A stretch of 64,000 nucleotides of DNA, taken from contig BAAIJX010000001.1 of the NCBI GenBank assembly GCA_054600435.1, forward strand, positions 682,001 to 746,000. The letters run 5' to 3'. The position numbers were made by a program, and so were the translations under genes. Position 1 is the stretch's first letter. Each line of letters begins with the position of its first letter. Positions 1 to 35,593 of the stretch are shown in pieces. The notes beneath the pieces were generated by a model. It saw nothing but the letters and a program-made list of their open reading frames with translations. It made no database searches and had not been told where the DNA came from. Origin of the DNA: Neophaeotheca triangularis (Eukaryota).

Positions 1-12
1 ATACAGTAAGTA

Positions 13-1114: not shown

Positions 1115-2134
1115 CGTCTAGAAAACCCTCTAGGCGCGTCTTACCGTATCCGCCGCTTCCTACCGCGTAACGCGGTAGACATAGTGGAGGGTTTTAATGC
1201 GACCCCCTATGTAGGCCTTCGCGTTATGTAGTACGCTTCGTGTAACGCGAGACATGTCAAAAAACATAGTTAGAATAACATTTCGCTACCCTTCATAATT
1301 TACATCACCTTAATACCTATACCTTATTAAAGCTATTACATGTCACATCTATTATCGCTAACCTATATACTACTAACACCTTACCCTCGTTCTACTATAC
1401 CCTAATAGCGTAGATACTTCTAGGAACTCTTCGAACTTATTAGTACCTAGTATTTTTCCCTTACTCCCCTTAATATGAGTCCGTGATTCCTTATGAACTA
1501 GTTACTGAACTAGAACCCGAATCAGTTCATAAGTTAGGTACTAGTTCATGAACTAGTTAAATTTCTGGTTCATAGGGTGTTCGACTTCGAAACTACCTAT
1601 ACGTTTTGTGGATTGGTCGTTATTAGGGTTATATAAGGCCTATACTGCTTATAGAGAGGCAATATATTGTTCCTAGGCGTTACTAAAATCAGATCCAAAT
1701 TATATAGTATAGTATTTACTCTTTAGACAATTCATCGTCTATATCTACTTAGTATACCCTTAGTTTCCTACCCTTCACTACATTACCTTTAGCCTAAGAG
1801 TTCTTAATCGACTATAGTAATTCCTTATTAAAAGTAGCTTCCTTCCTCTCGTTAGTTCCCTTCCTGTCCTTTACTACATAATGCTAAAGATATCCCCCTT
1901 CTTCTAGGTCTATAGCCTTATTCAATCGCATTTCTATCGACGTCTATATCCCTAGATCGCGCTTAGAGAAATCCTAATAACCTTAGAAAGTAGTTGTTCC
2001 TTTTATAGTAGAGTCTGTCTACTAAGTGTTCGCTATATACTACGAGCTAAAGTCTAGGCTTAGTAATTATCTAGGGTTAGGCACGAGGCTTGAATTAGGA
2101 ATTAGGTGATCTACCGTTTCCTAGTTCATGTTCT

Positions 2135-2430
2135 AGACCGGGCTGTCTACTTCCTAATCTAGGACATAGTTCGTGTTTCGGTTTGAGTTAGATACTATGT
2201 ACTAGTCCTATAAATCGACCTCCTAGTTTGTGTCCTAGATTAGGCTGTCTAATTCACGATCTAGGACCTAGTTCATGTCTCGGTTCAAGTTAGACACTAT
2301 ATACTAGTCCTATAATGCGACCTCCTAGTTTATATCCCGGATCAGGCTATCTAATTCCTAATCTAGGACCTAGTTCATGTCTCGGTTCGAGTTAGACATT
2401 ATGTGCTAGTCTAGTGATTCGACCTCCTAG
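2135..2430 (-). repeat. Three tandem 102-bp (34-codon) repeats
   Basis: GACCTCCTAG recurs at 2217, 2319 and 2421. Confidence 0.9.
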
Positions 2431-4956
2431 TCTAGGACACGAACCGGGAGATCTAGGAGGCTTAACTAATATGTAGTAGCAATGTTAGGAAGCATTCGTC
2501 CCCTTAGGGTTATAGCTCTATCTACTTAATTAGCGATTTATCTTACTATTAGGCTATATATAGGAACTTATGGGTAAGTGTAGCTACATTACTTTATCGC
2601 GAGCCTATCTTATATAGTAGTATTAAGCTCACTATGTTGTTAGGCATGTCTTCTTCATTAGTAGATTCAAGCCCTTCTAGACTCTCGTTAAACATCGCTT
2701 ACATTATCTCGAGGCTAAGGTCGTAGCCTACTAGTTCCTATACTACTATGTCGTATAAGGATATACTCATAATCTCGAGTATTCTCCCCTATCATTCTAC
2801 GCTCTACGCTATCTATAGCTTCATCTTCCCCTTAAATATTTAAGTAACCTTAAATGCATTTAGTCTTATTGCTTTTAGGTTCCCTAGCTATATGTTTTTA
2901 ATAGCTAATAGAATGTAGTGAATAGTAGTCATAGTGCTAATAAGTAAGAAAGCACTTATGTTAGTAAATAAGTGCTTCATGTATAGCTATATCCCTATCA
3001 CGTTATGCCTAAAGAGCGATATCTGAAGACTATCTAGTACTATTTTCCTTAAGTAACATTTTACCTACCCTAAAGGGTGTTATTAGACCTAAGACAGATT
3101 AAGTAGTACCTTAGGTATATATACTTATAGGCACGTCGTTCTTACATTCGAAGATGTTGTTATGTAGATGCTCTATTACCTATTCATAGGCATCTTTAGT
3201 AGAGATGTGTTTCCTAATAATGTTCGTCAAATCCTCTTGAATTCTTCGCATAATGTTATTATAGTGGTGTCGAACGGACTCCCTTATCTAGTTCTATTAG
3301 CAATATGCTATGAATAAGGGTAGATAAGCTAACCTTCTATAGCTTAGCTATAACTAGTTAATAGAGTATAGTTTCTCTCTCTTTAGGGGAGAGTTCTTAT
3401 TAGATATCGGACTAAGTAATGTTAGCCTAAGCATATACCTATCTATCCTATGATTCGGTCAGGAACATAGTGTTACATAAGGCTGCTCCTACTACTACTC
3501 TAGCGTTCAAAAGCTGCTTCGTTTGCTTATACATCGTCCGTTATCCTATTAGTTCAACCTAATTAGCATTATGCTTCCCTATCCTAGGCGATGTATTATC
3601 GTAGTGTCGGTTCCTATCACTTAATTGTCTACTAGAGTCCTTTTATAGCAATTAACCCTTTTGTCTTTTCGAAGGTAGAGGGGTATTAGAACTATAGTTG
3701 TTAAAGTAGTATACTAAGCTATAGTATAAGGTAATAGACTTACTCGTCTCTCTTATCCCTTCCCTTCTTCTATATACTATGCGATCCTTTACCCTTATAT
3801 ATAGCATCTTACTCATATTCGCTATTACTATTAGACTCGTTATAGGGTAGGGTAGACCTTCTTTAAGGCATAGTCGATTTACTATAGGTATCTACATACG
3901 CTTCTATCTTGATGTCGTTCTATTAATATAGGACACTAGTAGTCATTAGTTTTTAGGTGTGTTCCTATGAGTTCGATTTCAAAAAGGAGCGTAGCTACCT
4001 ATTAATTAAAGTTTACTAGTCTCCCCTCCCTACTCTAGTAGACATACTACTAACTCTCTTAGTAGCTATGTTTAGGAGTATATAGATTAGGTTAGTCATA
4101 AGTTTGTTTTATCGAGACCTGTATCTTACTACAGAATATATATGCTAATGAACGCTATTAGTCGATTACCCTTCATCATACATTCGTTATCTATAAAGTA
4201 CTAGGATTATATGAAATATATTAGTTAATTTCTCTTCTTTTTACGATCTGATAATACCTTACGCTTTATCTAACCTTTCGCCTTATACTCTCTTTCATGC
4301 CTTTATTAAACACCTACACTTTACATATAGTATTCCGAGAAACCCGAGCTTTAATATATCCTAATAGTAATAGCATTTATTATGTCTAAAGTACCTAGGG
4401 CTAGACCTAATTCATAGTAATCGCTAGCGAGCGATCGCTAGGGGGTAGTACACTTACCTAAGGAGGTTCTAGAGTCTTTACTAGTTCATTTCAATAATAG
4501 GTCCTCTATAGAGTCTCTACCCCCTTCGTCGCCTCTAATATAACCATAACGATCTTCAATTCTACCCTTATCACTACTACTACTACGATTACTACTACCG
4601 CGATCACTACTACTACGACTACTACCCTAGCCTCTACATCGTCTAGAGTAACTAGAACGATCTACATTTCGCCCTACTCTCGACATAGGCCCTACCCTTC
4701 CTAGTTTAGATAGCTTCGTTATTATCAAATAACCTAAGGACTAACTATCTACATATAAACTTTAAGGGTTAAGGATATAGTTAGCGACATTAGAGACAAT
4801 AGCTAACTAACATTATAGAGAAGTCGAAGACATATGTCGCGACATCTACTAGCTTCGCATATGTATAATTAGGGGTATAATGGGTAGATAGCTGTAATAC
4901 TACCTAATAACATAGTTCAAGGTATAGTTTCATTTCCGGCCTTATATCCCCTCTTT

Positions 4957-5120
4957 ATCGACGAGATAAGGGAGCTTTACAAACTAGGGACCGAACCGGT
5001 AACTAGTTCAGGTAATAGTATCATAGATTAGGCTTTCGTCGACGAGATAAGGGAGCTCTATGAACTAGTAACCGAACTAGTAACTAGTTCAGGTAATAAT
5101 ATCCTAGATTAGGCTTTCAT
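4957..5120. repeat. Two tandem 81-bp repeats
   Basis: CGACGAGATAAGGGAGCT at 4959 and 5040. Confidence 0.9.
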
Positions 5121-5549
5121 TAACTCCTACTAGCCTATAGGAATGTCCGTGTTATGATAGTAGTATCTATAGGATATAGTTAGAGTATAGGTAGCGAGTT
5201 CGGGAATGTCGTAATTACTACGAAGAGTATATAAGAAGGCTAACCTCTAAGCCTCCTATCCGCCTTTAAATGGTTTCTATATCAAAGGACTATTACTATT
5301 ATAACCCCCATTATACATTAACCTCGTCACGCCATGAAGTACTAGGTGTTATAGTCTTAGTCTTATAGTCGTCACTATTATTACTAATCCTTCTATTACC
5401 ACTAGAATAGATATAACTAGTATTGGTTTTACGATAGTGGTTATAAATGTCCCTAGACTTCCCTTAAATATACTACCTAGACACCTATCTACATAGCATA
5501 TCGGCTTACACTAAAGCGTATGTAGCGGTAGTAATAAGACCCCCCTCCT

Positions 5550-6539
5550 CCCCCCTTAACTAGGAACTAAACTAGGAACTGAACTAGGAACCGAACTAGG
5601 ACATAGTTCGCATGGAATCGTCATAGCCCGGGCGTTTGTCGCTATAGTAGGGCTCGATTCGGTATAGTATCTAGTATCATTCTAGGGTCATATAGAGGGC
5701 GTAGGTTCGAAGTAACTTCGGTTCTATAGTATAGCTTAGATACCTCTCGAAAATCATGGCTATTGTCATCTAATACTAAACATTATAGGTAATGTATTAC
5801 GTAGTATATATGCTATCATGGCCCTCTATTAGTAGTAGTTATTAATAGTAGACACCTTTAACGGGTCTTTTGAAACTTCGTCCTACTAAACCAATATATC
5901 CATATTCCTATCGAAGTTATAGTCATCTTAAAGGATTATTAAGAAGCATTCGAAATTGAGATTGTTAACATCCTATACTATACTAAGTATAGGCCTATCG
6001 TCTATTATCTCATAAAGTCTACAAAGTGCCTTATATTCCCTATCCTTACATGTAAGGGTAATTATTCGCTATAGGAACTCATTAACTATAGGGCTCGGCT
6101 ATAGCGTATCTCTTATAGGTAATTACGTCGCTAGAGTTCCGACCCTAGTAGTATTAGAACTATCACTAGTCATTATAGCCTTTACCATTTTCGAATCCTA
6201 TTAGTTACTACCCTAATGTCGAACTCGCTACTAGTAGTTAGAGCATATCCTATATATAAGTTTGTAGAATGCCGTCTTGCCTTCGCTCGTATAAAGCCTA
6301 GCTACTAGTCATAGAAACTAGGCCGCTATTACCTATATATTTAAAACTAATACTATTAACTCTACCCTTATCGTCTACCTCTATACGATAGAGCGAAAAG
6401 TATAGCTAATCTAACCTTACTATGTCATAGTGTCTTCTAGCCTCACATAAAACCCCTTATATACCGTTTTAGTAAGATCTAAGCCCCTCTAAATGTCATT
6501 TATTAAGCCTAATACTAGTAATAGGGTAGGGATGTTCAT
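5550..6539 (-). pseudogene. Accessory gene X of the Plavaka element, unknown function (boundaries approximate)
   Basis: ATG at 6539 (MNIPAL...). De-RIPed globular-looking stretch NLNFECFLTILQDDCNFDRNMDILVW...W.AMIA at ~5780-5980. Confidence 0.4.
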
Positions 6540-7375
6540 GTTAGTTCGAGTCGGCTTGTTATATGTTTAGTGTTAGGGTTTTTGAGTCAGTTTCATATTG
6601 GGTTTACTTAGTATAGAGGATGTAGGTAGTAGTGTTATTAGTATAATAGTTAGAGCTCTTTTGAAGAGGTAGTCGAGAACTAGTATAGTGTCTAATGTAT
6701 ATAAGTTATGTAGGTAGAAAACTGAAGTACTAGTATATATAGTCATATATCATTAGTACCTATACTATTAGGCTTACTAGTAATCACTAGTAGTACATGA
6801 TCCTTGGCGCGAATTCAACATCACCTCTTCTAAGACGAGACGACAGGATTTCCTGTAGAATTACTAGCTAGTATATGCCATGATACACAACTTTAATACC
6901 TACTGTCATACTATAGCCATTTTCGAGAAAATGTTTATATATAGGATTGACTATCGTCATTTTATCATATCTAACTGTCTAGCGAGGAATATACGAAAGT
7001 TCGTACTACTACTATTACCCTATCTTCTAGATTATTATCGCTATCTTTTAACAATAACCCTATACTGCCTAGATACCTACTAGATTTAAGATATAGTGGT
7101 CACTGAACTAGTCACTAAATCGGTTCCTAAACCGGTATCTAAACTAGGGAATATATTAACTAATCTAGTCATTTGAGAGGTATAGCGTTCACTACCTTTA
7201 TTAATGCCGACTTTACTAATAATCATTCGAAATATCATAGGTACCTATCCTTATACTCGCCGACCTTACCTAGATAAGAGAAGGAGATAAGCGGATACTA
7301 GATGCGACTAACGCTATCTTTAACTAAATTCAAGAAGTATGAAGATAGGGAGCCTTCGCGATCGAGGTAGTTTCC

Positions 7376-7638
7376 ACTAGTAGTTAAAGGGGTAGTAGTA
7401 CTAGTAGTAGCTACTACTACATTAAGGTAATAAGCTTAGTAGGCTTAGCCTCTAACCCCTTTACGAGATCATCGCGTTCCTTAGTAGTAGTATAGTAGGG
7501 GTAGGGCCTAGTAGTAGTCGAAGGGGTAGTAGTACTAGTAGTAGCTACTACTACATTAAGGCGATAAGCTTAGTAGGCTTAGCCTCTAACCCCTTTACGA
7601 GATCATCGCGTTCCTTAGTAGTAGTATAGTAGGGGTAG
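7376..7638. repeat. Tandem duplication, period 134 bp, abutting retroelement A
   Basis: AAGGGGTAGTAGTACTAG at 7387 and 7521; GAGATC at 7465 and 7599. Confidence 0.9.
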
Positions 7639-8057
7639 TGTTACGATCCTATAAGGTAGTCTTATAGGTAGAGCTTATAGTAGAAGAGGAGAGATATCGA
7701 AGAAGGCTAGTAAGGGTGTTTCCTTTATTATAAGGATTTCAAAGATACATGAAGTGTCATTATAGACCTTTTAGTAAGATTGTAACATAAGTTGAACACA
7801 AATCTCTATCTAGGAAATATCGCTAGCTATATATATAGGAGATTTGTGTTAGATTAGTCCTTAACTAATCTATCGTGCTTAGGATTAGACTGATCCTAAG
7901 TGTCCTAGCTTAGACTTAGTCTAAGTCTAAGCGAGTATACTTAGTTAAAGTCTAAGTAAACATCTTAGCTAGTTCTAAGATTATATGTCTAGTAAGCTTT
8001 AGGGTTAGACCCTAGCTTAGACTAGGGATTCTAGTTCTACTTAGCTTAGCTATAATA
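7639..8057 (-). repeat. 3' LTR of copy A
   Basis: TGTTACGATCC...TATAATA, direct repeat of 14362-14780. Confidence 0.95.
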
Positions 8058-8141
8058 CTATCCCCCTTTCAGCCTAGCTTTGTCCTCGAAGCCTAATAAA
8101 GTTCTGTCATTCCCCACATCGTTTTGTTATTAAGTTTCGCG

Positions 8142-8741
8142 ATGTCTTCTACCCTATCCTATAAATAGTAACATCTTAATCTTTTAGCTAAAATCAAGAA
8201 GTCTAGAATAACCTACATAGTACTCTATTTAGCCTACTAATCTACGAGGAAATCGCCTTTAGCTAAACTAGTACGATGTGTAATTAGTACTCGATCTAGT
8301 TAGTGTTCGGAATGTATATGTAAAGGGTATACTAAGTGTAACATAAAGCTTAGTCATCCTAAGTGGGAAAAATAGAGAGATTCATGTAACAAACTATAAT
8401 AGTAGTTAGAGGAGTATAAGGAGGAGGAGCTTGAGCTTTTACAAAAACTATATGAGCATCGTTCGAAAAAGTTATAGTTATGGAAATAGCTTCGTTATAC
8501 TAAGGGTTATATAGAAACCGTAGTGTCTAGAGAGTTAGAGGATTTAGAGTAAGTAGATTAGTTAGAGGAAGATCTCTTAGGTCTAGTTAACACTAGGGTT
8601 AAGGTTATATAGTATCTAAGCTTTATTAGTATTCTAGACATGTCGACATAGGACTAGAGTGCTATCGACAGCTTAGATCTTCCTTCTAAGCTTTAGGATT
8701 TCAGTCTAGATAATATTGTTATAGGGCCTTCTAGTAGTTAA
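8142..8741 (+). pseudogene. Antisense accessory ORF of copy A: Cys6 zinc-binding motif plus coiled coil (~200 aa)
   Basis: ATG at 8142. De-RIPed C-x2-C-x13-C-x8-C-x2-C-x7-C (RCVI..CSEC...KC; four Cys codons still intact), then the E/L/R/K-rich helix EEELELLQKL...LRKQL. Confidence 0.7.
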
Positions 8742-11700
8742 GTAAGTTATCCTTAGGTTCCTAAGTGTTTTCGCTTATATAGTAACCTTTCCATTTCACG
8801 AGGTAGTTCTAACCATCCTTATCTAGAATCTTTTCGACCTCATACTCGGCTTCTTCCTCTAGTAGATTATGGTGAAAGGTATCCTAGATTAGTGTTTTAG
8901 GGTCTACTAGTTTAAGTAAGGATATATAGAAGACTAGGTAGATTCTAGTATCTTTTAGGAGTTAGAGGAGGTAGTTAACTTTTCCTCTTTATTCTTTAAC
9001 TAGAAACGGTCTGACTTTAATATAGTCTAGTTTTCATGTTCGTCTCCTTATCTTCAGGTTTTTCATAAGTAGGTATACCTTATCCCCCTTCTTAAGCTAA
9101 GGTACTGTTTTGGAGTCCTTATGTCTTTATAACTCGAGTTACTACTATAATTATGTGATTTTGTCTTTCGCCTATTTATGTGCTTCCTATAGCTATGAAG
9201 ACGTTTATAGGGCTCTTTCTACGAGTAGTCCTAGCTTTAGTTCTATAAAAATATTTAGATCTTTTCTAAAGTTTACATAGAATAGAGTTATGCCTGTCGT
9301 TTCTAAGGTATTATTGTTAAGTACGAGCTATACTATAAGTAAGAGTGCTACCTAATTATCCTGAGCATAATTAATGTAATGTCGTAAGTATGTTTCGAAG
9401 GATTAGTTCGAGCGTTCTGTCTATCTATCGGTTTCTAGGTGAAATGCCATTAATAGTTTGTGTTTCACTCTAATTACTAAAATCAAGGTCTTCTAGTAAT
9501 TAGATATGAAGAGCTTGTCTCTATCTATAATTAGAACTATTAGAATACTATAGTATTGTACTAATCTGTTAAGGATAAGGTATCTAAGTTCCTCTATAGT
9601 AATTATCTTACTATAGGGAACGAAATGTGAATACTTCATGAGTCTATCGACTATAATTAAGATCGAATCATAGTCCTTACCTGTCGATAGGTCTCTAGAT
9701 CTTAGTAGCTTAACGATGAAATCCATTATAACCTCGTTCTATAGTAGGTCTAGTAGTTCCTAGAATTGTAGGTTTCTATATTTAGCATATCTCGAAGCTT
9801 TATTTTGTTAGTAGCTTATACATTTCTTAATGTACTCTAAGACCTTCTGTCTTATCCTAGGGAACATAAAGTTACGTCTAATGTGTTCCATTATTCTAGC
9901 GATTCCTAGATGTCTATTAGTAGGTCTATTATAGTAGTCCTAGATATACTAGCATTCTTTTTCGTTTAGAACCCTAAATTTCCTATATTCGATAGGGAAT
10001 TCCTTAGTGTTATCCTATAGTACTCATAGTACTAAGTTAAATTCCTAAGGGTTAGTACTTAGGCTACTATCCTTATTAACTTTTAGTATATAGTGTTACT
10101 ATAGAAGGTGTCCTTCTATGTAGTCGCTTCTTCTACTTAGCGTATTAGCGCGCCTATTATCCTTTCTAGGAGTGTAGACTATATCGAACTTATATTGTCC
10201 GAGTAGCTCTAACTATCTACATTATTAGCATAATAGTTCCTTAGTAGTTATGAAATATTATAGGTTCTTATGATCTAAGTAAATAGTTAGTCTAGTTACT
10301 CCTTTATAGTATACTCTCTAGTATTGTAATGCTATAATAATTACGAGTAGTTCTTTGTCATAGATTTCGTAGTTCTATTCTACTAGTGACATCTTCCTTA
10401 AGAAGTAAGCGATAAGGTGTCATTTGCTTTTAACCTCCTACATGAGGTAAGCTCCTATTACTCTATTAGAGGCATCTGTTTCGATTTAGATAGGTTTCTT
10501 AGGATTAAACATCCTTAGTATAGGGGTAGTCGTACATAACTCCTTAAGCTTATTGAAGGATTATTATTAAATCTTTCCCTATATAAATAGTGTGTCTTTC
10601 TTTATAAGGTTAGTTAGAGATATAGTAAGCCTTAAATAATCCTACATAAATTTCCAATTATAGTTAGCTAATCTAAGGAATGCTTAAATGTCCTTAACTA
10701 ACTTAGGTATTAGCTATTCCTCGATTAATTGAGTTTTCTTTAGGTCTATTCAGATCCTAGTAGTACTAATCATAAAGCCTAGAAAGTCGACTTCCTTCTT
10801 ATAGAACTCGTATTTCTCTAGTACTATTCTAAAGTCTACCTTATCGAGTCGTTCGAATACTACATGTACGTCCTTAGTATACTATTCTCATAATCCTTTT
10901 ATGAAGACTAATATGTCATTAATATAGGTAATAATAGTGATGTTAAGTAGGTCTCGTAGGATGTCGTTAATGAGTTACTAATAGGTTACTAGGGCATTCG
11001 TGAGTCCTATAGGTATAACCTAGAATTCGTAAAGTCTGTAGCGTATTCGAAAAGCTGTTTTCTACTCTTCCCCCCTTACTATTCTAACTAAATAGAATGT
11101 ATCTTAGAGATCAATTTTAGTAAACTAGTATGAACTAGTGAGTCGATCTCTTATCTCGTTAATATTAGGTAGTAGATAATGGTTTTTTGTAGTAATTGTA
11201 TTAAGTCATCTAAAATCGATAACTATTCATAGTTTTCCTCCTTTCTTTAGAACAAAAAATAGTAGTAAAGTAGCTAATAAAGTAGAGGGTTAAATCTATC
11301 CTTTCTTTATTTTTTCATCTAGCTATCGTCATTACTCTTCGAGCTCTTTTTCGGATAGCATATAAAGTGGCCCCTATAGTATTTTCGTACTAGGCTAAAT
11401 GTCGATTTAGTAGTCCTATAGTTAATATCTAGGTAGAGTAGCTACTCCTTCCTCTTCCTAGAAAAGGTGCTTCTATTTCCTAAATTCTCTAGGGATATCT
11501 AAAGGTATATAACTTCCTTCCTTAACTCTCATTTATTAGTCTATTTAGGCTAGTTCGGTACCTATAGAGTCCGATCTAATTTGTATTAGTATTATAGTCA
11601 ATTAGCGATATGTTTCATTAATCTACCTTCTCTTATCTACCGTCGATCGCTACTAGCATGTAGGGTAGGTTGTAGTAATGTAACTATATCTATCGAATAT

Positions 11701-14780: not shown

Positions 14781-15212
14781 ATAGAATAAAGCGGAAGGAT
14801 ATGAAGACAGCCCCTACATTATAGCTATAGCGGTCTCGAAGATCAACGTAGGAGTGTCCTTACTACTAGCTAATGTTATCATGTTACTCGATAGGTTATA
14901 GTTACTAGAAGTAGACACCTAGTTAACTAGTCGAGTTAGGTATAACAAGGTAGTATAAATAGTAAAGCATACTGAAAGTTATCACCTTATCTTACACTTA
15001 TCTTACTATAGCCTTAGTGTCGACTTAGCGAAACGCTATATGAATATAGTAGACATCTATAAAGGTATCGAAGCTATAGCGCTAGAAATGAGGGCATAGA
15101 GGGATATAGATAAGGGAAATAAGGATACTACTATGACGGATACGTGAGGTAGGTTAGGTACTATAGTAGAGTGGTAGCTATCTATTACGTAGACTATAGA
15201 CAGCATTATTAG

Positions 15213-22100: not shown

Positions 22101-23341
22101 CAGCCTAATATGAAAATACTATAGGGGCCACTTTATATACTATCTGAAAAAGAGCTCGAAAAGTAATAATAATAGCTAGATAAAAAAATAAAGAAAGGAT
22201 AGATTCGACTCTCTACTTTATTAGCTACTTCACTACCGTTTTTTGTTCTAAAGAAAGGAGGAAAACTATAAATAGTTATCGATTTTAGACGACTTAATGT
22301 AATTACTACAAAAAACCGTTATCTACTACCTAATATTAATGAGATGAGAGATCGACTTACTAGTTCACACTAGTTCACTAAAATCGATCTCTAAGATACA
22401 TTCTATTTAGTTAGAATAGTAAGGGGGGAAGAGTAGAAAACAGCTTTTCGAACGTGCTATAGACTTTATGAATTCTAGGTCATGCCTATAGGACTTACGA
22501 ATACCCTAGTAACCTATTAGTAACTCGTTAATGACATCCTATAAGACCTACTCGACATCACTATTATCGCCTATATCGATAACATATTAGTCTTTATAAA
22601 AGGATTATGAGAATAGTATACTAAGGACATATATATAGTATTCGAATGACTCGATAAGGTAGACTTTAGAATAGTACTAGAGAAATACGAGTTCTATAAG
22701 AAGGAAGTCGACTTTCTAGGCTTTATGATTAGTACTACTAGGATCTGAATAGACCTAAAGAAAACTCAATTAATCGAGGAATAGCTAATACCTAAGTTAG
22801 TTAAGGACATTTAAGCATTCCTTAGATTAGCTAACTATAATTGGAAATTTATGTAGGATTATTTAAGGCTTACTATATCTCTAACTAACCTTATAAAGAA
22901 AGACACACTATTTATATAGGGAAAGATTTAATAATAATCCTTCGATAAGCTTAAGGAGTTATGTACGACTACCCTTATACTAAGGATGTTTAACTCTAAG
23001 AAATCTATCTAAATCGAAACAGATGCCTCTAATAGAGTAATAGGAGCTTACCTTACATAGGAGGTTAAAAGTAAACGACACCCTATCACTTACTTCTTAA
23101 GGAAGATGTCACTAGTAGAATAGAACTACGAAATCTATAATAAAGAACTACTCATAATCATTATAGTATTACGATACTAGAGAGTATACTATAAAGGAAT
23201 AACTAGACTAACTATTTACTTAGATTATAAGAACCTATAATATTTCATAACTACTAAGGAACTATCATGCTAATAATGTAGATAGTTAGAGCTACTTAGA
23301 CAATATAAGTTCGATATAGTCTACACTCCTAGAAAGGATAA

Positions 23342-23767
23342 TGTTACGAACACTACGCTATGCCTAGCATATAACGAGGAATGCTTAGTGGAACCTATAG
23401 TCATAGGACAGAGCACATTCAGGTCACGTGACGAGCTCACCTCTACTTAGTGCTCACCTTTAACTAAGCACTACTAAGTAATAGAGTAGTGCTTACCTCT
23501 ACTTAGTGCTTACCTTTAACTAAGTATTATGGAGTAACAGATCATGATGATTAGAGATATGAATCTCCTTTATATTTAGGTAGCGACATTTCCTAGATAG
23601 AGATTTGTGTTCAACTTATGTTATAATCTTACTAAAAGGTCTATAGCGACACTTCACATATCTTTGAAATCCTTATGATAAAGGAAATACCCTTACTAGC
23701 CTTCTATAATATCTCTCCTCTTCTACTATAAGCTCTACCTATAAGACTACCTTATAGGATCGTAACA
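23342..23767 (+). repeat. 5' LTR of copy C
   Basis: TGTTACGAAC...CGTAACA, direct repeat of 30073-30498. Confidence 0.95.
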
Positions 23768-26700
23768 CTTTAAACACCCTCTAGGAAAGAGAGATCATTA
23801 GGTAAGTATGTCCCTATCTAATAACTAAGATGCTAGCGTAGTAAGCACTTAGTATGCTTCGCCCTCGTTACTAGTTAAGGTCATAAAGCTAGATTACTTT
23901 TCTAGAGAACATAATAAGCTTGATAACTAGATTAACTAGATAATGTTATTCTTCATCCTTAAAGGAATTAACAACGATTAGAAATATACTCTAACTACTA
24001 CTTCTTTCCTTTATAGAGAAGCCTAATACTAGATTCGCCCTAAGCTTATAGAAATGCTATTGAATCATAATGACCTAGAAGCGATCTTTACTACTTAGGA
24101 AGGGTTCATCACCATTATTCGAAACGTCTATAGACTTAGCAACGATCGATAAGTCGCTATTCGAATGATTTAACATCTTATATAGAAGACCTTAGCCTCT
24201 TAGTACACTACTAAGTTTTAGGAGTACTTAGCTAAGACTGACTAGGATGATAATGCTCTTATAACTATGTACTACTAAGGACTTAAGGATAACATAAAAG
24301 ACGAACTTATACGCTATAGAGGCAATCAGTCAACTCTCCCTAGAATGATCAAATCAGCGATCGAAGTTAACGATGTACTCTACGAATAGTTTATGGAAAA
24401 ATGCTATACTAGACAATTTTATAGATGAACTAGCTATACTACTAGTAGCTAGCCTATTAGTTAGCAATATTGCGATCCTAACGCGATAGAACTCGACTCT
24501 ACATAATAGCGTCTTAGGAAGGGTAGGGATAGAGGATAGGGTAAACAGAACGCCCTAGACAAGAAACGGAACGGACTAGAATGCTATAACTACTATAAGA
24601 TAGGGCACTATACACGAGACTACTATGGGAAATAGATATGCCTATAATAGGAGGTTAATGCGATTTTGACCTAATAGGATAACGACTCTCCTACTAATAA
24701 GAGCTATAGAGCTTATGACATTACTAGAACATATGAAGAACTAGAGTATGACGAACTTCACTAGAGGTTTTGCGAAAGGGATTATTACTTAGTATACAAA
24801 AGTCAAGGACTAGTAACTAATAGTATATCTACTAAACCTTAGAAGGAAGTGAACATTATCGAACGAGTTACCCTAAAGTCTAGAACGGACGCGCTAATCG
24901 AGTAATACTAGAAGCTTAGGGAGTTTCATAATAACTTAGTTAGTTATAAGGAGTAGACTAAAGAATACTTCAACCTTATGATCTAAGTAGCTAATCAGAT
25001 AGTAGATCTTAATAATAGGATTAAGGCCATAATAGACGAAGAATCTAAGCAATTATATAAGCCTTAGAAGGAACTTAACATAATGTTAAGATACTAACTA
25101 CTATAGTAGTTAAGGGATGATAGTAACGTAGCCTAAGGAAGGTCCCTACCTCTATTTGTATAGGAGGATAATAAACTATAAGAAAACTAAGTACTATTAC
25201 TAATAATAGTACTACTAACACCTGACTTAGACAATAAAGAAATATCTCTAACACTAGAACTTACTATGATCATACTAACACTAGAGATTAGCCCTTTAAG
25301 ACTATCGATACCTCTAGAGATTCTAGAATTGTAAGAAGATACGATAGTGATAGATTCTGAAGACGACTCCGAATATGACTATACTAATGATGACGAACTA
25401 GATGATAATGATGTAGTAGAATTTGTTGTATATAGACTAGGTCTAATCAAGAAAATGGTCATCTATATTATATAGTTATATGAAGAAGTGTTCCTAGTGA
25501 TCTAAGGCAAACGATGCTTAGAACTTAATTAATTCGAAGCTATACTCATGCAATTACGAGTAATGTTCTAGGACTACTAAAAGGTCGCTGTCGAATATAA
25601 TACTACTACCTTTATCTAGGATAGGCTACTAATAGGAAGCACTTTCTATAGAGAAAACAGCTACATTATACTAGATAGGATATAGATCCTATACATAATA
25701 AGACAACAAGTTAAGACAGTCAAGAATCGTTATAGAGAATTCTAGCTTATCTAGGAGTAGTAGAGAGAAGAAGAAATCATGCTATAAGAAATGAAGAAAT
25801 AAGTATAGGATTCCTTAGACTAATAGATAATAGTACTACATAAAAGATTCCTACTACTAGTTAACCGAAAGATGATTCTTAGACACATTAAAGCAACTAC
25901 ATAAGGACCTATTACTATATATGTAATCTAAGGAAAAGTTATGATTAGACCTCAGGATAGACCCCTTTACTAGGAAGTCTCTCTTAAGATAGTAGATTTA
26001 CATACCTACTTCTCAAAAAACGAATAGGACCTGTCGCTAAGAGCGAGCATTAGGAACTAAACAATACAAATGCTTAACATAAAATAGTATTAGGAATGGT
26101 CTTCCGAACAACATGTACTATTAACAGATATGAAACCTTTACTATAATAGATTCTAGAGCTAGTAGAAACTTTATCTTAGAAACATTCATATGTTAGTAT
26201 AGGCTAGCTACCTAGAAGAAAACAGATAGTAGGTATGAACTAATAGCTATAGACATCTCATCACTACCTGATGTGGACAGCGAAACAGTACTACTACTAC
26301 TTGTCTTCTAAAAGCATTATGAGCGAATTGTCCTAGACATTATGCCTATAGCTAGATATGACATCGTTCTAGGCACTCCTTAGTTAGAATAACATAATCC
26401 TATAGTAGATTAGAGAAAACGAGTACTCACATTCGATAGGTATAGTTATGTCACTACAACCTACCCTATATACTAGTAGCATTCGATAGTAGATAAGAGA
26501 AGGTAGATTAATAAGATATATCGCTAATCGACCACGATACTAATATGAATTGGATTAGACTCTATAGGTACCGAACTAGCCTAAATAGACTAATAAGTAA
26601 GAGTTAAGGAAGGAAGTCATGTACCTTTAGATATCCCTAGAGAATTTAGAAAATAGAAGCGCCTTTTCTAGGAAGAGGAGGGAGTAGCCGCTCTACCTAG

Positions 26701-29399
26701 ACATTAACTATAGGACTACCGAATCGACATTTAGCCTAGTACGAAAATACTATAGGGGCCACTTTATGCACTATCTAAAAAAGAGCTCGAAGAGTAATAA
26801 TGATAACTAGATAAAAAAATGAAGAAAGGATGGATTCGACCCTCTCCTTTATTAGCTACTTCACCACTATTTTTCGTTCTAAAGAAAGGAGGAAAATTAC
26901 GAATAATTATCGATTTTAGATGACTTAATGCGATCACCACTAAAAACTGTTATCTACTACCTAACATCGACGAGATAAGAGATTGACTCACTAGTTCATA
27001 CTAGTTTACTAAAATCGATCTCCGAGATGCATTCTATTTAGTTAGAATAGTAAGGGGGGAAGAGTAGAAAACAGCTTTTCGAATGCGCTACAGACTTTAC
27101 GAATTTCAGGTTATGTCTATAGGACTCACAAATGTCCTAGTAACCTATTAACAACTCATTAACGACATCCTATAAGACCTACTCGATATTATTGTTATCG
27201 CTTATATCGACGATATATTAGTCTTTACGAAAGGATCATGAGAATAACACACTAAGGACATATACATAGTATTTGAATGACTCGACAAAGTAGACTTTAG
27301 AATAGTACTAGAGAAATGCGAGTTCTATAAGAAGGAAGTCGACTTTCTAGGTTTTATAATCAGTATTACTAAGATCTAAATAGACCTAAAGAAAACCTAA
27401 TCGATCGAGGAATAGCTAACACCTAAATTAGTTAAGGATATCTAAGTATTCCTTAGATTAGCTAACTATAATCAGAAATTCATGAAGGATTATTTAAGGC
27501 TTACTATACCTCTAACTAACCTTATAAAGAAGGACATACTATTTATATAGGGGAAGATTTAACAACAATCCTTCGATAAGCTTAAGGAGTTATGTATGAC
27601 TACCCCTATACTAAGGATGTTTAACCCTAAGAAACCTATCTAAATCGAAATAGATGTCTCTAATAGAGCGATAGGAGCTTACCTCACGTAGGAGGTTGAA
27701 AGCAAATGACACCCTATCGCTTACTTCTTAAGGAAGATGTTACTAGTAGAATAGAACTACGAGATCTATAACAAAGAACTACTTATAATCATTGTAGTAT
27801 TATGATACTAGAGAGTGTACTATAAAGGAGTAACTAGACTAACTATTTACTTAGATTATAAGAACCTATAATATTTCATAACTACTAAGGAACTATTATA
27901 CCGATAATGTAGATAGTTAGAGCTACTCGGACAATATAAGTTCGATATAGTCTATATTCCTAGAAAGGACAATAGGCGCGCTAATACGCTAAGTAGAAGA
28001 AGCGACTACATAGAAGGATACCTTCTATAGTAACACTATATACTAAAGGTTAATAAGGATAGAAGCCTAAGCGCTAACCCTCAGGAATTTAACTTAGTAC
28101 TATAAGTACTATAGGATAACACTAAGGAATTCCCTATCGAACATAGGAAATTCAGGGTTCTAAACGAAAAGGAACGCTAATATATCTAGGACTACTACGA
28201 TAGACCTACTAATAGACATCTAGGAATCGCTAGAATAGTAGAACACATTAGACATAACTTCATGTTCCCTAGGATGAGATAGAAGGTCTTAGAGTACATC
28301 AAGAAGTGTATAAGCTACTAACAAAACAAAGCTTCGAGACATGCTAAATATAGAAACCTACAATTCTAGGAGCCACTAGATCTACTATAGAACGAGGTCA
28401 TAATGGATTTTATCATTAAGTTACTAAGATCTAAGGACCCGTTAACAAGTAAGGACTATGATTCAATTCTAGTTATAGTTAATAGACTCATGAAGTATTC
28501 ACATTTCGTTCTCTATAATAAGATAATTACTATAGAGGAACTCGGATACCTTATTCTCGACAGATTAGTACAATACTACAGCATTCCTATAGTTCTGATT
28601 ATGGATAGAGACAAGCTCTTCATATCTAACTACTAGAAGACCTTAATTTTAGTAATTAGAGTGAAATATAAGCTATTAACAGCATTTCACCTAGAAACTA
28701 ACAGATAGATAGAACGCTTAAACTAATCCCTCGAAACATACTTATGACATTATGTCAATTATGCTCAGGACAATTAGGTAGCGCTCTTACTAATAGTACA
28801 GCTCATACTTAATAACAATGCCTTAGATATAATAGGTATAACTCTATTCTATACAAATTTCAGAAAGGACCTAAACATGTTTGTAGAACTAAAGCTAGGA
28901 CTACTTATAGAAAGAGCCCTACAAACATCTTCGTAGCTATAAGAAGCATATAAATAGGCGAAAGACAGAATTACATAGTTATAGTAGCGACTCGAGTCAT
29001 AGAGACATAAGGACTCTAAAACGGTACCTTAGCTAAAGAAGGGGGATAAGGTATATCTACTTACAAAAAACCTGAAGATAAGAAGACGAACATAGAAACT
29101 AGACTATGTCAAAGTCAGACCGTTTCTAGTTAAGGAATAAAGAGGAAAAGTCAACTACCTCCTCTAACTCCTAAAAGATGCTAGAGTCTATCTAGTATTC
29201 CATATATCCTTACTCGAACTAGTAGATACTAAAACACCTATCTAAGATACCTTCTATTATGATCTACTAGAGGAAGAAGCTAAATACGAGGTCAAAAAGA
29301 TTCTAGATAAGGATAGTTAGAACTACCTTATGAAATAGAAAGGGTATCCTATAAGCGAAAACACTTAGGAACCTAAGGACAACTTACTTAACTACTAGA

Positions 29400-29984
29400 A
29401 GATCCTATAGTAATATCACTAGGAATTAGACTAAGGTCCCAAAACTCGTTAGGTAGGCTGTCTATCGAAGTCTAAGTAAGAGGATTTAAAGCCAGATTAG
29501 GACCTAGTTAATTAGGAGGAAAGTCAGGATTAAAGAGCTTATTACTACCTTCCTTAAGCTCGAGGAGCTCGATATTACGCTCTTTAACAGCTATAGCCTC
29601 TCCCTCCTTCTCCTATAGACAGTCTATTTGTTTCCGAAGATACATTTCCTTAGACAACGAATGATTTGCTTCCTCTTAAGCCTTAGCTATCTTTTACTAA
29701 GTGATAATAGATGTATACTAAGTCTCTTCTATCGCCTTATGAAGATGCTTATAATCATGACGAAGACGAGCGAACTCGTTCTCTATCACTCTTACATCAT
29801 AAGAAGAAATGTTTCGCTATATATAGGCAGTACACTTTCTAGACTAAATGTATACCTTATACACATGACCTACCTCCTAGTATTATGTACATTTTCGAAC
29901 TATGTCGAGAACTATTCTATGCGAATCCAGGAAATTGAATAACTTATAGCGACGAGTAGTAGAAGATTTCTTTATTTTAGGCAT
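29400..29984 (-). pseudogene. Antisense accessory ORF of copy C: Zn2Cys6-like motif plus coiled coil (3' end approximate)
   Basis: ATG at 29984 (MPKIKKSS...). De-RIPed C-x2-C-x6-C-x8-C-x2-C-x7-C, then ENEFARL...KEMxLRKQ...ERNIELLE. Confidence 0.7.
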
Positions 29985-30072
29985 CGCGTTAATAAAGGAA
30001 GATGCTATTAACTATAGAATGAAAGACAAGTAGAGAATAAGCTCAGGACGAGCTAGACTAGGAGAGGGATAG

Positions 30073-30498
30073 TGTTACGAACACTATACTATGCCTAGTA
30101 TATAACGAGGAATACTTAGTAGAACCCACGGTTATAGGATAGAGCACATTTAGGTCACATAACGAGCTTACCTCTACTTAGTACTTACCTTTAACTAAGT
30201 ACTACTAAGCAATAGAGTAGTGCTTACCTCTACTTAGTACTTACCTTTAACTAAGCACTATAGAGTAATAGATCATAACGATTAGAGACATGAATCTCCT
30301 TTGTATTTAGGTAGCGACATTTCCTAGATAGAGATTTGTGTTCAACTCATGTTATAATCTTACTAAAAGATCTATAGTAACACTTCACATATCTTTGAAA
30401 TCCTTATAATAAAGGAAACACCCTTACTAGCCTTCTACGATATCTCTCCTCTTCTACTATAAGCTCTACCCGTAAGACTACCTTATAGGATCGCAATA
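30073..30498 (+). repeat. 3' LTR of copy C
   Basis: Direct repeat of 23342-23767. Confidence 0.95.
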
Positions 30499-31917
30499 GA
30501 TAATAGGCACGCTAACGCGCTAAGTAGAAGAAGTGACTATATAGAAGGATACCTTCTATAGTAACACTACATACTAAAAGTTAATAAGGATGGTAGCCTA
30601 AGCGCTAACCCTTAGGAATTTAACTTAGTACTATAAGTACTATAGGATAATACTAAGGAATTCCCTATCGAACATAGGAAATTCAGGGTTCTAAATGAAA
30701 AGGAATACTAGTACATCTAGGACTACTATAATAGACCTACTAACGGACATCTAGGAATTGCTAGAATAATAGAACACATTAGATATAACTTCATGTTCCC
30801 TAGGATAAGATAGAAGGTCTTAGAGTACATTAAGAAATATACGAGCTACTAACAAAATAAAGCTTTAAGACATACTAAATATAGAAACCTACAATTCTAG
30901 GAACTACTAGACTTACTATAGAACGAGGTCATAATGGATTTCATCATTAAGCTACTAAGATCTAGAGACCTATCGACAGGTAAGGACTATAATTCGATCT
31001 TAGTTATAGTCAATAGACTTATGAAGTATTCACATTTCATTCCCTATAATGAGATAATTACTATAGAGGAACTCGGATACCTTATCCTCGATAGATTAGT
31101 ATAATACTATAGTATTCTAACAGTTCTGATTACAGATAAAGATAAGCTCTTCACATCTAATTACTAGAAGACCTTAATTTTAGTAATTAGAGTGAAACAT
31201 AAACTATTAACGGCATTTTATCTAGAAACTAATAGACAGATAGAACGCTCGAACTAATCCCTTAAAACATACTTATGATATTATGTTAATTACACTTAGG
31301 ATAATTAGGTAGTACTCTTACTTATAGTATAGCTCGTACTTAATAATAATGCCTTAGAAACGATAGGCATAACTCTATTCTAATAAACTTCAGAAAAGAT
31401 CTAAATATTTTTATAGAACTAAAGCTAGGACTACTTATAGAAAGAGCCTTATAAACATCTTTATAGCTATAGGAAGCACATAAATAGGTGAAAGACAAAA
31501 TCATATAGTTATAGTAGCGACTCGAGTTATAAAGACATAAGGACTCCAAAATAGTACCTTAGCTTAAGAAGGGGGATAAGGTGTACCTACTTACGAAAAA
31601 CCTGAAGATAAGGAGATAAATACGAAAACTAGACTATGTTAAAGTCGGACTGTTTCTAGTTAAAGAATAAAGAGGAAAAGTTAACTACCTCCTCTAACTC
31701 CTAAAAGATACTAGAATCTACCTAGTCTTCTATATATCCTTACTCGAACTAGTAGACCCTAAAACACTAATCTAAGACACCTTTTACTATAATCTACTAG
31801 AGGAAGAAGCTAAGTATAAGGTCGAAAAGATTCTAGATAAGGACGGTTAGAACTACCTCGTGAAATGGAAAGGTTACTATATAAGCGAAAACACTTAGGA
31901 ACCTAAGGATAACTTAC

Positions 31918-32517
31918 TTAACTACTAGAAGGCCCTATAATAATATAATCTAGACTAAAATCCTAAAGCTTAGAAGGAAGATCTAAGCTATTAATAGTAC
32001 TCTAGTCCTATGTTGACATCTCTAGAATACTAATAAAGCCTAGATACTATATAACCTTAACCTTAGTATTAACTAGACTTAAGAGATCTTCCTCTAACTA
32101 ATCTACTTACTCTAAATCCTCTAACTCTCTAGACACTACAGTTTCCATACGACCCTTAGTATAATGAAGCTGTTTCTATAACTGTAACTTTTTCAAGCAA
32201 TACTTATGTAGTTTTTATAAAAGCTCGAGCTCCTCCTCCTTACACTCCTCTAACTACTATTATAGTTTGTTATATAAATCTCTCTATTTTTCCTACTTAG
32301 GATGACTAAGCTTTACATTATACTTAGTATACCCTTTATATATATATTCCGAACACTAACTAGATCGAGCACTAATTATACATCATACTAGTTTAGCTAA
32401 AGGCGATTTCCTCATAGATTAGTAGGCTAAATAGGGTACTATATAGGTTGTTCTAGACTTCTCGATTTTAGCTAAAAGATTAAGATGTTACTATTTATAG
32501 GATAGGGTAGAAGACAT
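31918..32517 (-). pseudogene. Antisense accessory ORF of copy B (same ORF as 8142-8741)
   Basis: Reverse-complement match to the copy A ORF; ATG at 32517. Confidence 0.7.
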
Positions 32518-32601
32518 CGCGAAACTTGATGATAAAATGATGTAGGGAATGACGGAACTTTATTAGGCTTCGAGGACGAAGCTAGGCTGAAAGGGAGATA
32601 G

Positions 32602-33020
32602 TGTTATAGCTAAGCTAAGTAGAACTAGAATCCCTAGTCTAAGCTAGGGTCTAACCCTAAAGCTTACTAGATATATGATCTTAGAACTAGCTAAGACATT
32701 CGCTTAGACTTCAACTAAGTATACTCGCTTAGACTTAGACTAAGTCTAAGCTAGGACACTTAGGATTAGTCTAATCCTAAGTATAATAGATTAGTTAAGG
32801 ACTAATCTAATATGAATCTCCTATATATATAGCTAGCGATATTTCCTAGATAGAGATTTGTGTTTAACTTATGTTATAATCTTACTAAAAGATCTATAGC
32901 GACACTTTATGTATCTTTGAAATCCTTATAATAAAGGAAACACCCTTACTAGCCTTCTTCAATATCTCTCCTCTTCTATTACGAGCTCTACCTATAAGAC
33001 TACCTTATAGGATCGTAATA
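32602..33020 (+). repeat. 3' LTR of copy B
   Basis: Direct repeat of 18718-19136, followed by TSD AATAG. Confidence 0.95.
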
Positions 33021-34149
33021 AATAGGTAGAGGACTATATGTGAAGTATAAGGCCTAATAGGTAAACCGATAGGCACTCATCTACGTAAGGCAATCATAGT
33101 GTTCATATGTGAACAAAGGACGCCTACTTATATAGATGTCGCTAGAATGATGAGCGAACTAGTAACTAGACTAGGATATGAATTAGTGACCGGTTCGGTA
33201 AATGATTCATATCCTAATCTAGTTAATGATTCGAGTACTGATCCGGTTAACGATTCGAGCACTAATCTAGTCCACGATCTAGTCTATGATCCGGTCTATG
33301 ATCTAGTCTACGATCTAGTCCATGATCCGGTCCATGATCTAGCGAACGATCTAGTAAACGATCTAGTGAATATATATAAGTAGGAAGCAGATCTAGATCG
33401 TCTCGTCGTAGTAGACTAATAGGTACTAGATCTCTAGGTGAAATTTCATGCTTCCCTATAGTGTTAGAAAAGAAGTAGTAGTAACCTAATAAACCCTAAT
33501 GTAGAGGAACTAGATATTATACGCTATAATCCTAACTAGTAAGGGACGATTAGGAATACAAGGTACGACTAGTTGTGGGTATAAGAGTATGCTACTAATA
33601 TATTAGAACGAGTAGAAGACGACATTGCGTTTAATAGTAGACTACTAGCGTAGCTATACCTAGTACTATTAGTTAAAGACGTTCCGACAACATAACGAGA
33701 GTAGTAACCATTCGATAGTAGTATAAAAGACTATCCTGTATATATAGGTACTTTCGTTAATCTATACTAACTAAAGGATCTAAGAGGTCTCGCTAATAAT
33801 ACCTATAGCATAATGTTAATTATACTAGTACTAAGTTCCCTATAGGCTAGTAAACTAAGAGGCTATTAGATATACGGGCTAACTAATGTATACTATAGTA
33901 TACATGTAGTACTAGTTAATGAGAACAAGGTTAGGGGTAGGGACATGTACATTAACAATATAGCTGACTTCGAGACATACAACATACTATAGAATGCTAA
34001 CTAGGAAGTGAAGGAGGCACGGGATACCTATGATATAAAAGAGCGAAGATTGAGGCGGTCTAGACCCGGCGAGATAGAGATATAAAAGGGGAATAGTAGG
34101 ACATGTCTAGCGAAGCGGAAAAGAACAGGCTAAGAGGGTATATTGGCGT

Positions 34150-35050
34150 TAGGGATAGTATTAGTACTAGGGGGTATTAGGTATAACACTATCCTCGTAA
34201 TTTAAAAAGACCTATATAACCTCTATAGTAACTACATAGTTAGGGTCTCTCTAACTATAACGGTTAGCTAAAGGGTAGATGTTCTTAGACTAGTAAGAGC
34301 TGTTCTTGAAATCTAGCTACTTATAGAGGCCTAAGTATTATATAGAAGATACTAACATAATTGCATTATGAGCGACCTCCTAGTAAGCCTTCCTAGTATA
34401 CTTTACATACTCCTCTACTATAAGAAGGGTGTCATAAATCATCTCCGATATCTCTAGTACATTATCGTCGAACTTATATGTCTAGGTGAATACGATAGTA
34501 GTATTATAGGTCGTGACCTAGGTAAGGGAATATTTCGGCTTTATAATAGGCGATATGTTCTTTAGCTACTACTAAGATAATGTAAAAGCCTCGTCATCAT
34601 AGTAGGAGTATATAGCATGCCTAGTTATAGGTACCGTAACTAGGGGCTCTACTATTATTAGATCGGGCGTCTATTCTAGTAGCTATAGCCTTTTATATAG
34701 TTATATATATAGAACTACCTCTTATAGCTCTTCCTTAAATAACTCTTATGGCATAGTGCGATGCCACTATATAGTAGGCCTTCTCTCTTCTTCTACGAAG
34801 CGCTAGTAATCCCTTTAGAGAGCTACTTTAGCTAGGTCTTATTACATAAACCGACTATATTATATCTCTATGTCGAAGGTTAGTAGATCATAAGATGAAC
34901 CTATCGAAGAGCGATAGGGCCCTTAGGGGACGAGGTATATGTTAGCTTTAGCATATAAAGGTAGTAGTAAGTATATTAATAGCTATAGTAAGGACTTATC
35001 GCTAATTAGGCACTAGTCTATATAGCCTATAGGTAAAGGTAGACCTTACT
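34150..35050 (-). pseudogene. Accessory gene W of the Plavaka element, convergent with the transposase, unknown function (boundaries approximate)
   Basis: Long de-RIPable minus-strand frame (LTFDIEIQYGRF...IVFTWTxKFDDDVLEISEMIYDTLL...WLDFKNS). Confidence 0.45.
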
Positions 35051-35593
35051 ACTTTACTCGATCCTTTAAGTATTAGAAGTGTATAGGTTAAATAGTGTTT
35101 GTTTATAAGGTTATAAGTAGTAGGACCGAACTACAAATAGTAGAGCGTGATGCTATATAAGTATACTAAGGCTACCTACTATTTCCTAATAGAGAACAAT
35201 TACTACTTAAAAGCCCTAACTAGTACCTGAATCATAAACCGAATCATGACCCGAATCATAAACCGAATCATGACCCGAATTGTGACCTGAATCGTAACCT
35301 AGATTGTAGACTATACTATGGCCTAGTATAGTATTGGGTTCGGACTCTAACTAGAGAGGAGCTATAGTAGGCTATAGGATAGGTAGTAACTATATATAAC
35401 GAGCAAAACCCTAAGATATGACAAGTAGGAAGCGAAGCGATGTACTCATATTTTATGAGACTCGAATAGAAGTAGTAGGACGTATATGAACGTAGCAGGA
35501 TATAAAGCCCCTCGATAAGACGTAGCTATTACTATCCTAATGTAGCTAACGTACTAGATGTAGGGGACGCGGATAAAGGGTTTTCTAGACATT

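Follow-up and report, generated by a model that had tools for sequence, protein, structure and literature searches.

The window analysed in this study is a stretch of 64,000 nucleotides from the dothideomycete Neophaeotheca triangularis (contig BAAIJX010000001.1), in which 1-38100 is AT-rich (GC content 32-40%) and the rest has a GC content of ~55%. The AT-rich part is an island of nested repeats. Its outermost unit is a complete Mutator-like element (MULE) at 13-38111 with ~120-bp inverted ends, which were 88-90% complementary in the repeat search, and a perfect 9-bp target duplication, CAGTAAGTA. Inside this host element lies the subject of our analysis, a Plavaka-type DNA transposon at 1115-35591, which contains a mutated transposase gene, the remnant of a gene for an SNF2-like ATPase and three retroelements with long terminal repeats (LTRs). 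The three LTR elements of the original prediction, one standing alone and one lying inside another, were confirmed, and the body of the transposon without them comes to 6524+3937+2566 = 13,027 bp, in line with the predicted ~13.0 kb. The features are collected in Table 1.

The transposase identifies the family. When Pfam was searched with stop codons read as X, one of the six frames of 14781-18717 gave a match, at nucleotides 17039-17890, and the family matched was the Plavaka transposase PF18759 (102.4 bits vs a cut-off of 26.3, E=3.8e-29, profile positions 30-322 of 325), which bears out the assignment that had been made from the letters of the DNA. The relatives found in the protein collection, a metagenomic protein of 858 residues (P0002; E=6e-146, 41% identity) and a protein of Polychaeton citri CBS 116435 (P0003; E=3e-137), both carry PF18759. 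The alignment with these intact relatives is colinear across the 14.3-kb LTR nest: the first part of the transposase ends with ..FFRXPTXSRGVRA at 18712, and the second part restarts with XRTICEVXGLIGKP at 33027 and reaches the end of P0002 near 34150. The four Plavaka motifs that had been recognised beforehand are indeed present, in the mutated forms SNKT..VYLIIGN, NYKEQ, DILYXLLKG and FNFPKXHVMVYY. These motifs are invariant between P0002 and P0003, and each change in the window is a transition of the type made by repeat-induced point mutation (RIP). Likewise, HCTMC of the relatives reads HYTIY in the same columns of the window, with C changed to Y as RIP predicts. In total, the transposase has 84 stops in 1277 codons.

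When P0002 and P0003 served as queries against metagenome contigs, 22 Plavaka loci emerged, and one of them, L001, supplied the upstream part of the gene. Its zinc-finger-like exon (L001:1525-2259) maps to 15826-16671 of the window in phase 0, and the alignment to this exon scored 66 in the plain form, at 16315-16551, vs a null of 30.5±2.3, and 322 in the RIP-tolerant form, vs 208±12. The change of the transposase from phase 0 to phase 1 is common to the window and L001. We also observed in-frame low-complexity expansions in the transposase, DLV/DPV at 33140-33380 and LGPN/SRP at 16660-16745, which are absent from P0002 and P0003.

The ends of the transposon were examined together with the host gene around them. 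The inverted termini that had been claimed, CGTCTAGAAAACCCT at 1115-1129 and AGGGTTTTCTAGACA at 35577-35591, match in inverted orientation at 14 of 15 positions, as did random pairs of 15-mers from the AT-rich part in 22 of 2,000,000 trials. The weaker similarity that had been noticed further inward (CGCGTC) proved to fall within a 26-bp match between 1115-1140 and 35566-35591; these terminal inverted repeats (TIRs) are identical at 21 of 26 positions, and two of the differences are transitions. The dinucleotide TT stands on each side, and cutting out 1115-35591 plus one TT leaves CCT TTA CTA in frame, as the original prediction held. A 3-bp duplication (CTT/TTT) would break the frame of the host MULE, and only the removal of the element plus 2 bp keeps both the frame and the domain. 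On the left, the flank stops at 1113 with ..ILLLNYTYKTNKYNXP, and its end matches the related ZSWIM1-3 RNaseH-like profile (E=0.017). On the right, the flank from 35593 (LLNFRATS..) matches the Pfam MULE profile PF10551 with its first residue at profile position 17 (E=1.3e-4; a longer stretch of the right flank gave E=0.01). The 16 residues of the left flank (ILLL..NXP) occupy profile positions 1-16 by count, and they fit what we take to be the consensus of the profile at D5, T7, Y8, N11, Y13 and P16. Judged by this profile count, the transposase domain of the MULE is split by the insertion exactly between positions 16 and 17. Considering the inverted ends, the TT and the contiguous host domain together, both the ends and the 2-bp length of the duplication are firmly placed, on the basis of one insertion.

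The whole repeat island is mutated by RIP, and this copy of the element is long dead. The index TpA/ApT is 1.6-2.25 in the repeat segments vs 0.66 in the host part, the index (CpA+TpG)/(ApC+GpT) is 0.33-0.48 vs 1.22, and 492 of 524 differences to other copies, in contigs of one public run, are transitions. The three LTR copies are 90-93% alike and represent one retroelement family. The second LTR nest (14.3 kb) is flanked by a perfect 5-bp duplication, AATAG. By contrast, the flanks of LTR element 1, GGTAG and ATAGA, do not form one 5-bp duplication even when RIP is allowed for, and only a 4-bp match (GTAG/ATAG) is found between them. Because these flanks lack the 5-bp duplication that its family makes, LTR element 1 is probably a recombinant that took out adjoining DNA.

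Next to LTR element 1 lies the second gene of the transposon. A gene Z had been predicted here on the plus strand; the gene is real, but what remains of it is a truncated C-terminal remnant of an SNF2-like ATPase. A profile hidden Markov model (HMM) of the family, with eight members, matches the window at 14785-15030 (profile positions 749-830 of 856, E=5e-11) and has no other match in the six frames of 1-7638, 14781-18717 and 33026-38100. In tblastn, the L001 open reading frame (ORF) matched 14800-15018 with E=7e-10, and P0005, a member of the family, gave E=2e-8; the RIP-tolerant alignment extends the remnant to 15141. The first ~750 residues were detected neither by the family HMM in these segments nor by context-restricted alignment in the left arm, and the corresponding codons were probably lost together with LTR element 1. 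Since only 4 bp separate the remnant from this LTR element and a proper duplication is missing, the likeliest course of events would be two LTR insertions followed by recombination between them.

Of the 22 loci, L001 and L002 come nearest to the transposase of the window, and they show the SNF2-like gene in a fuller state. In L001, an ORF at 3-632 precedes the transposase in the same orientation and matches Helicase_C of Pfam above the cut-off (E=1.6e-6), whereas L002 has the whole gene upstream of the transposase. Both are recognised by the family HMM (L001, E=2e-82; L002, E=4e-125; same strand as the transposase), and the distance from the helicase match to the transposase match is ~2.0 kb in L001 and in the window alike. 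A search of 1.84 billion representatives with the L002 ORF found 22 proteins (P0004-P0025) at E<=1e-3. Ten family members were compared with Pfam: SNF2-rel_dom was found in eight, above the cut-off in seven, and the other two gave a weak ResIII match only and nothing, respectively. The family retains the motifs MGLGKT, DEFH, SATP and GRVxR. The predicted structure of P0005 (mean pLDDT, a per-residue confidence score, 67.8) matches the ATPases of BAF, Mot1, Ino80, Chd1, Rad5 and Rad54 with E=1e-15 to 1e-12, and the helicase ORFs of L002 gave no useful match among the sequences of solved structures. Accordingly, in terms of SNF2-rel_dom, Helicase_C and the two-lobe fold, the relatives resemble the Swi2/Snf2 ATPases (BAF/Brg1, Mot1, Ino80, Chd1, Rad5, Rad54), of which the window keeps the last part of the C-lobe only. 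They differ from these named ATPases in that the family is tiny, has 11-14% identity to them and can be assigned to no subfamily. Polychaeton citri has a fragment of an SNF2-like ATPase as well as the transposase relative. These data suggest that the transposase of this Plavaka sublineage has a conserved companion in the SNF2-like gene upstream of it, as judged from the gene order at three loci.

Several side observations concern the companion genes. Nine of the ten SNF2-like clusters that were looked up come from metagenome or run assemblies only, and the one with a species name is the Polychaeton citri fragment. P0014 and P0020 are paralogues on contigs of equal size (41,004 nt), possibly one contig. 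In L005 (1228-2145), L006 (1286-1981) and L022 (2334-3098), a DUF6532 ORF on the minus strand is found upstream of the transposase and in the orientation opposite to it, which suggests a different companion gene in a more distant Plavaka lineage. Our literature search found no paper that links Plavaka with SNF2 or a helicase; it did not cover Iyer et al. 2014, the first Plavaka paper, where such an association may have been noted.

Table 1. Coordinates of the nested repeats and of the Plavaka-type transposon in the window.
Feature	Position	Strand	Basis
9-bp target duplication of the MULE, CAGTAAGTA	4..12, right copy 38112-38120		read directly
Left TIR of the host MULE	13..133, partner 37990-38111		repeat search
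TT target duplication of the Plavaka element	1113..1114, right copy 35592-35593		MULE frame after excision
Left TIR, 26 bp, CGTCTAGAAAACCCTCTAGGCGCGTC	1115..1140	+	compared with reverse complement of 35566-35591
Left arm; tandem repeats 2119-2431, 4958-5118, 7378-7638	1141..7638		Pfam, coding scan, homology searches
LTR retroelement 1 (LTRs TGT..ACA)	7639..14780	-	repeats; minus-strand coding signal
SNF2-like ATPase remnant, last ~80-119 codons, 4 stops	14785..15141	+	family HMM, tblastn, RIP-tolerant alignment
Transposase, N-terminal part, zinc-finger-like region, phase 0, RIP-type C to Y changes, 17 stops in 282 codons	15826..16671	+	L001 alignment, purine/pyrimidine scan
Transposase, core, phase 1, Plavaka domain 17039-17890, 45 stops in 627 codons	16832..18717	+	Pfam, alignment
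Two LTR retroelements, inner one ~23340-30590	18718..33020	+	AATAG duplication 18713-18717 and 33021-33025
Transposase, C-terminal part, phase 2, 22 stops in 368 codons, end approximate	33026..34150	+	colinear with P0002
Right subterminal region without detectable coding signal	34151..35565		Pfam, 0 families; purine/pyrimidine scan <=0.7 from 34226
Right TIR, 26 bp, ending ..TCTAGACA	35566..35591	-	paired with 1115-1140

Regarding known systems, the view of the original prediction that this is an undescribed mobile system with rarely defined ends does not hold, because PlavakaA termini and 2-bp duplications are already published (PMC12730594). Kojima (2025) describes PlavakaA by 2-bp target-site duplications and termini of 5'-TGT..ACA-3', with the ends TGTCGGAAAAATCC../..GGATTTTTCCGACA. 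The PlavakaA families there, from Laccaria, Serpula and Coprinopsis, are 7.3-9.8 kb long; PlavakaB is set apart by CATCA..TGATG termini and by the presence of TET/JBP; both are placed in the CMCT clade (EnSpm, Mirage, Chapaev, Transib, Plavaka), and the complete families come from Agaricomycotina. On the one hand, the element in the window resembles the PlavakaA entries of that text (PlavakaA-1_LB, -1..4_SLL, -1_CCO) in its Pfam Plavaka transposase, its zinc-finger-like N-terminus, its right terminus ..ACA and its 2-bp target duplication, TT being among the duplications shown there for PlavakaA. The ends in the window, [C/T]GTCTAGAAAACCC, are also like TGTCGGAAAAATCC at 10 of 14 positions, as compared by eye. 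On the other hand, its host is a dothideomycete with RIP whereas the described PlavakaA hosts are mushroom-forming fungi, its body is 13 kb (more before the deletion) as compared with 7.3-9.8 kb, and it carries an SNF2-like ATPase gene.

With PlavakaB and the TET-positive Plavaka elements (Agaricus bisporus, Gymnopus), it shares the transposase family and the possession of an accessory gene with a presumed role in chromatin or DNA marking. PlavakaB differs by its CATCA..TGATG termini, its duplications of 2-3 bp and its TET/JBP dioxygenase; no TET/JBP family of Pfam was found at E<=1 in the 18 frame translations of the three body segments. The idea of a cargo-carrying Plavaka element is likewise already in print: a preprint on red algae (bioRxiv 10.1101/2025.02.11.637652) reports Plavaka elements of 17-19 kb with three accessory genes, and states that TET/JBP is the only Plavaka accessory gene known in basidiomycetes. 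Our element resembles these giants in being large and having more than one gene. It differs from them in that their genes PAG1-3 encode an N6-adenine methylase/SET protein, a ParB-like/2OG oxygenase and a protein of unknown kind, no SNF2-like gene being mentioned in the text available, and in that the hosts belong to different kingdoms.

Two other kinds of element were considered and rejected. EnSpm/CACTA elements of the CMC superfamily have a related DDE transposase with C(2)C and His motifs, short subterminal repeats and often a second gene; they have CACTA/CAC..GTG termini and a 3-bp duplication, whereas the window has CGTC../..GACA, and 3 bp breaks the host frame. The Starship giant elements carry a tyrosine-recombinase captain (DUF3435) at one end and have no such inverted ends; the body segments gave no DUF3435 match in Pfam, and the element in the window has a DDE transposase along with inverted ends.

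About four accessory genes had been proposed for the body, in the layout <-Y <-X Z-> Tpase-> <-W, and only one of them, the truncated SNF2-like gene, emerged from our analysis. The coding scan used a fifth-order three-periodic Markov model of the purine/pyrimidine (R/Y) pattern, for which ORFs from the fetched loci and from the host served as training data. Since RIP makes only transitions, this pattern survives RIP. The scan picked up all parts of the transposase in their correct phases and, in addition, 14781-15300 as phase 0. By comparison, stop-codon density per frame gave no separation of frames after RIP, and the first RIP-tolerant alignment, in which any T could revert to C and any A to G, had a very high shuffle null and was useful only where plain scores were already significant. 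Nothing was found by the R/Y scan from 34226 to the right end. The place of gene W is partly the C-terminus of the transposase, which, running to ~34150, leaves no room for this gene, and the remainder is without coding signal. For genes X and Y, no Pfam match, homologue or robust coding signal was found in the left arm. In detail, Pfam at E<=1 recognised no family in any of the six frames of either arm. In the context-restricted RIP alignment, which found its controls, P0005 scored 205 against the left arm vs a null of 172±15 (maximum 203), which is not significant, and P0006 scored 177 vs 171±10. A plus-strand phase 0 candidate at 4051-5300, picked by purine periodicity, was not called as coding; the Markov R/Y model favours the minus frame there, and the stretch is of low complexity.

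The left arm is where the explanations diverge. It would be unlikely, in our opinion, that the 13-kb body is one cargo element with about four real accessory genes, X and Y on the minus strand at the left and W at the right. The left arm does fall between the inverted ends, open stretches of fair length occur in the minus frame 1501-4701, and there are weak minus-strand R/Y runs at 3301-3900, 4201-4650 and 5551-6150. The motif AACTAGT, which was chosen post hoc, is also more frequent in the left arm (2.8/kb) and in the middle (3.8/kb) vs 0-0.8/kb in the LTR and MULE parts, and this lends weak support to a common origin of the two, as far as motif frequency can indicate. However, Pfam is blank in both arms, whereas the equally RIP-mutated transposase gave E=4e-29. 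The best R/Y window of the left arm (11) is within the range of the shuffle null (maximum 7.4±1.8, highest 11.4) and sits on a low-complexity run. The minus frame 1501-4701, which was the left-arm frame searched in the protein collection, has no homologue at E<=0.01 among 7999 candidates, and the right arm is transposase to ~34150 and without signal beyond. A different possibility, which we consider doubtful though worth holding, is that ~1300-7638 is one or more unrelated nested repeats, so that the Plavaka element proper would consist of the left end, 14781-18717 and 33026-35591, as it stood before the loss of the SNF2-like gene. The N-terminal part of the SNF2-like gene, expected left of 14785, is not detectable there, the published PlavakaA elements (PMC12730594) are 7.3-9.8 kb long, and the left arm has no more 12-mers in common with the middle than with the MULE flanks, although this last comparison is uninformative. 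Parts of the left arm are also present twice in the same genome, both copies being RIP-mutated: contigs of one public run (X1), which is probably the source and covers the stretch, hold a second, RIP-diverged version of 2733-3141 (32 differences in 409 positions), 3633-4046 (32 in 414) and 5572-6016 (47 in 445), these pieces being among the 9 of 138 that were listed. But the second copy may be the same Plavaka element again, and RIP itself requires a second copy. Moreover, neither bounding inverted repeats or duplications nor a transposase, reverse transcriptase or other Pfam domain was found in the left arm. The second version was not seen to cover 1115-1275; holes of this kind prove nothing, and we draw no conclusion from them about the ends. 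As a separate observation, runs X2 and X3, which bear the same organism label, gave over 1-7640 only 43 low-complexity bases (X2), which is no proof of absence; if the absence is real, the whole repeat island is strain-specific.

It is very improbable that the ends are coincidental and that the Plavaka transposase fragment belongs to a scrambled RIP island in which no element can be delimited. Only a single copy with such ends has been seen, and a 2-bp TT match taken alone is weak in AT-rich DNA, but two fixed positions would show a 14/15 inverted match by chance with a probability of ~1e-5, excision joins the host MULE domain without gap or overlap, and the ends are like the published ones of PlavakaA (PMC12730594). 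We thus prefer, with a probability of roughly 0.8, to read 1115-35591 as a single, long-dead, PlavakaA-like cut-and-paste DNA transposon that carried an SNF2-like gene upstream of its transposase. The following points weigh against this preference. The left terminus in the window is CGT, with C and not the T of the PlavakaA 5'-TGT, the right end being ..ACA. The ends are seen in one copy, and the placement with PlavakaA and not PlavakaB is based on the ends and the duplication only. The left arm could be foreign nested DNA. For LTR element 1, a 4-bp GTAG/ATAG match that keeps phase 0 across the element is also possible, the deletion by LTR recombination being our interpretation. The SNF2 link comes from three loci, and the family HMM matches 2 of the 22 fetched Plavaka loci; L004 (37% identity) has 1.3 kb upstream of its N-terminal ORFs without an SNF2-like match, and L002 is itself degenerate, with in-frame stops. 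As a separate result, the terminus motif had in the 22 loci no match with fewer than 2 mismatches, and none was placed as an end; the two closest loci are too short to reach the ends.

Considering what is known of the family, the active element would have worked through a DDE transposase of ~1300 residues, which would bind the 26-bp inverted ends (TGTC-type termini), excise the element and reinsert it with a 2-bp duplication. The copy in the window inserted into the transposase gene of the MULE, and three LTR retroelements of one family then invaded it. Recombination between two LTR elements probably deleted most of the SNF2-like gene, and RIP destroyed all that was left. The SNF2-like ATPase may have remodelled chromatin or DNA, either to help transposition or to counter silencing. 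As for the lineage as a whole, the odds seem to us evenly balanced that the dothideomycete-like Plavaka sublineage is a two-gene element that always has a dedicated, rare SNF2-like ATPase, perhaps a remodeller that aids excision and integration or counters silencing; the left arm may hold more cargo.

The element is an ordinary dead transposon whose kind, termini and duplication have already been described, and this dead copy serves no purpose of its own other than as a marker for an island of RIP-mutated repeats beside host genes. It is modestly new as a dothideomycete member of Plavaka and for the evidence of an SNF2-like gene inside the element. It provides a precisely bounded PlavakaA-like element in a dothideomycete, a direct case of an SNF2-like ATPase gene, as a remnant, within Plavaka terminal repeats, and a pointer to a very small unnamed SNF2-like family that is seemingly tied to these transposons. 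Transposon-borne genes for chromatin or DNA modification are of current interest, as in TET/JBP, the red-algal PAG genes and the VANDAL anti-silencing factors. An ATP-dependent remodeller, if true, would be a new kind of transposon helper, a counterpart of the TET/JBP and PAG genes that other Plavaka lineages carry.

Outside the transposon, the host MULE without its guests measures ~3.6 kb and is more heavily mutated by RIP than they are (TpA/ApT 2.1-2.25). A 24-nt tandem repeat of ~6-7 copies occupies 37436-37611 in its right part, adjoining the inverted end. Beyond the island, the host gene at 40786-43368 encodes a mitofusin that is 100% identical to an annotated Neophaeotheca triangularis protein, and its other best matches are from Dothideomycetes.

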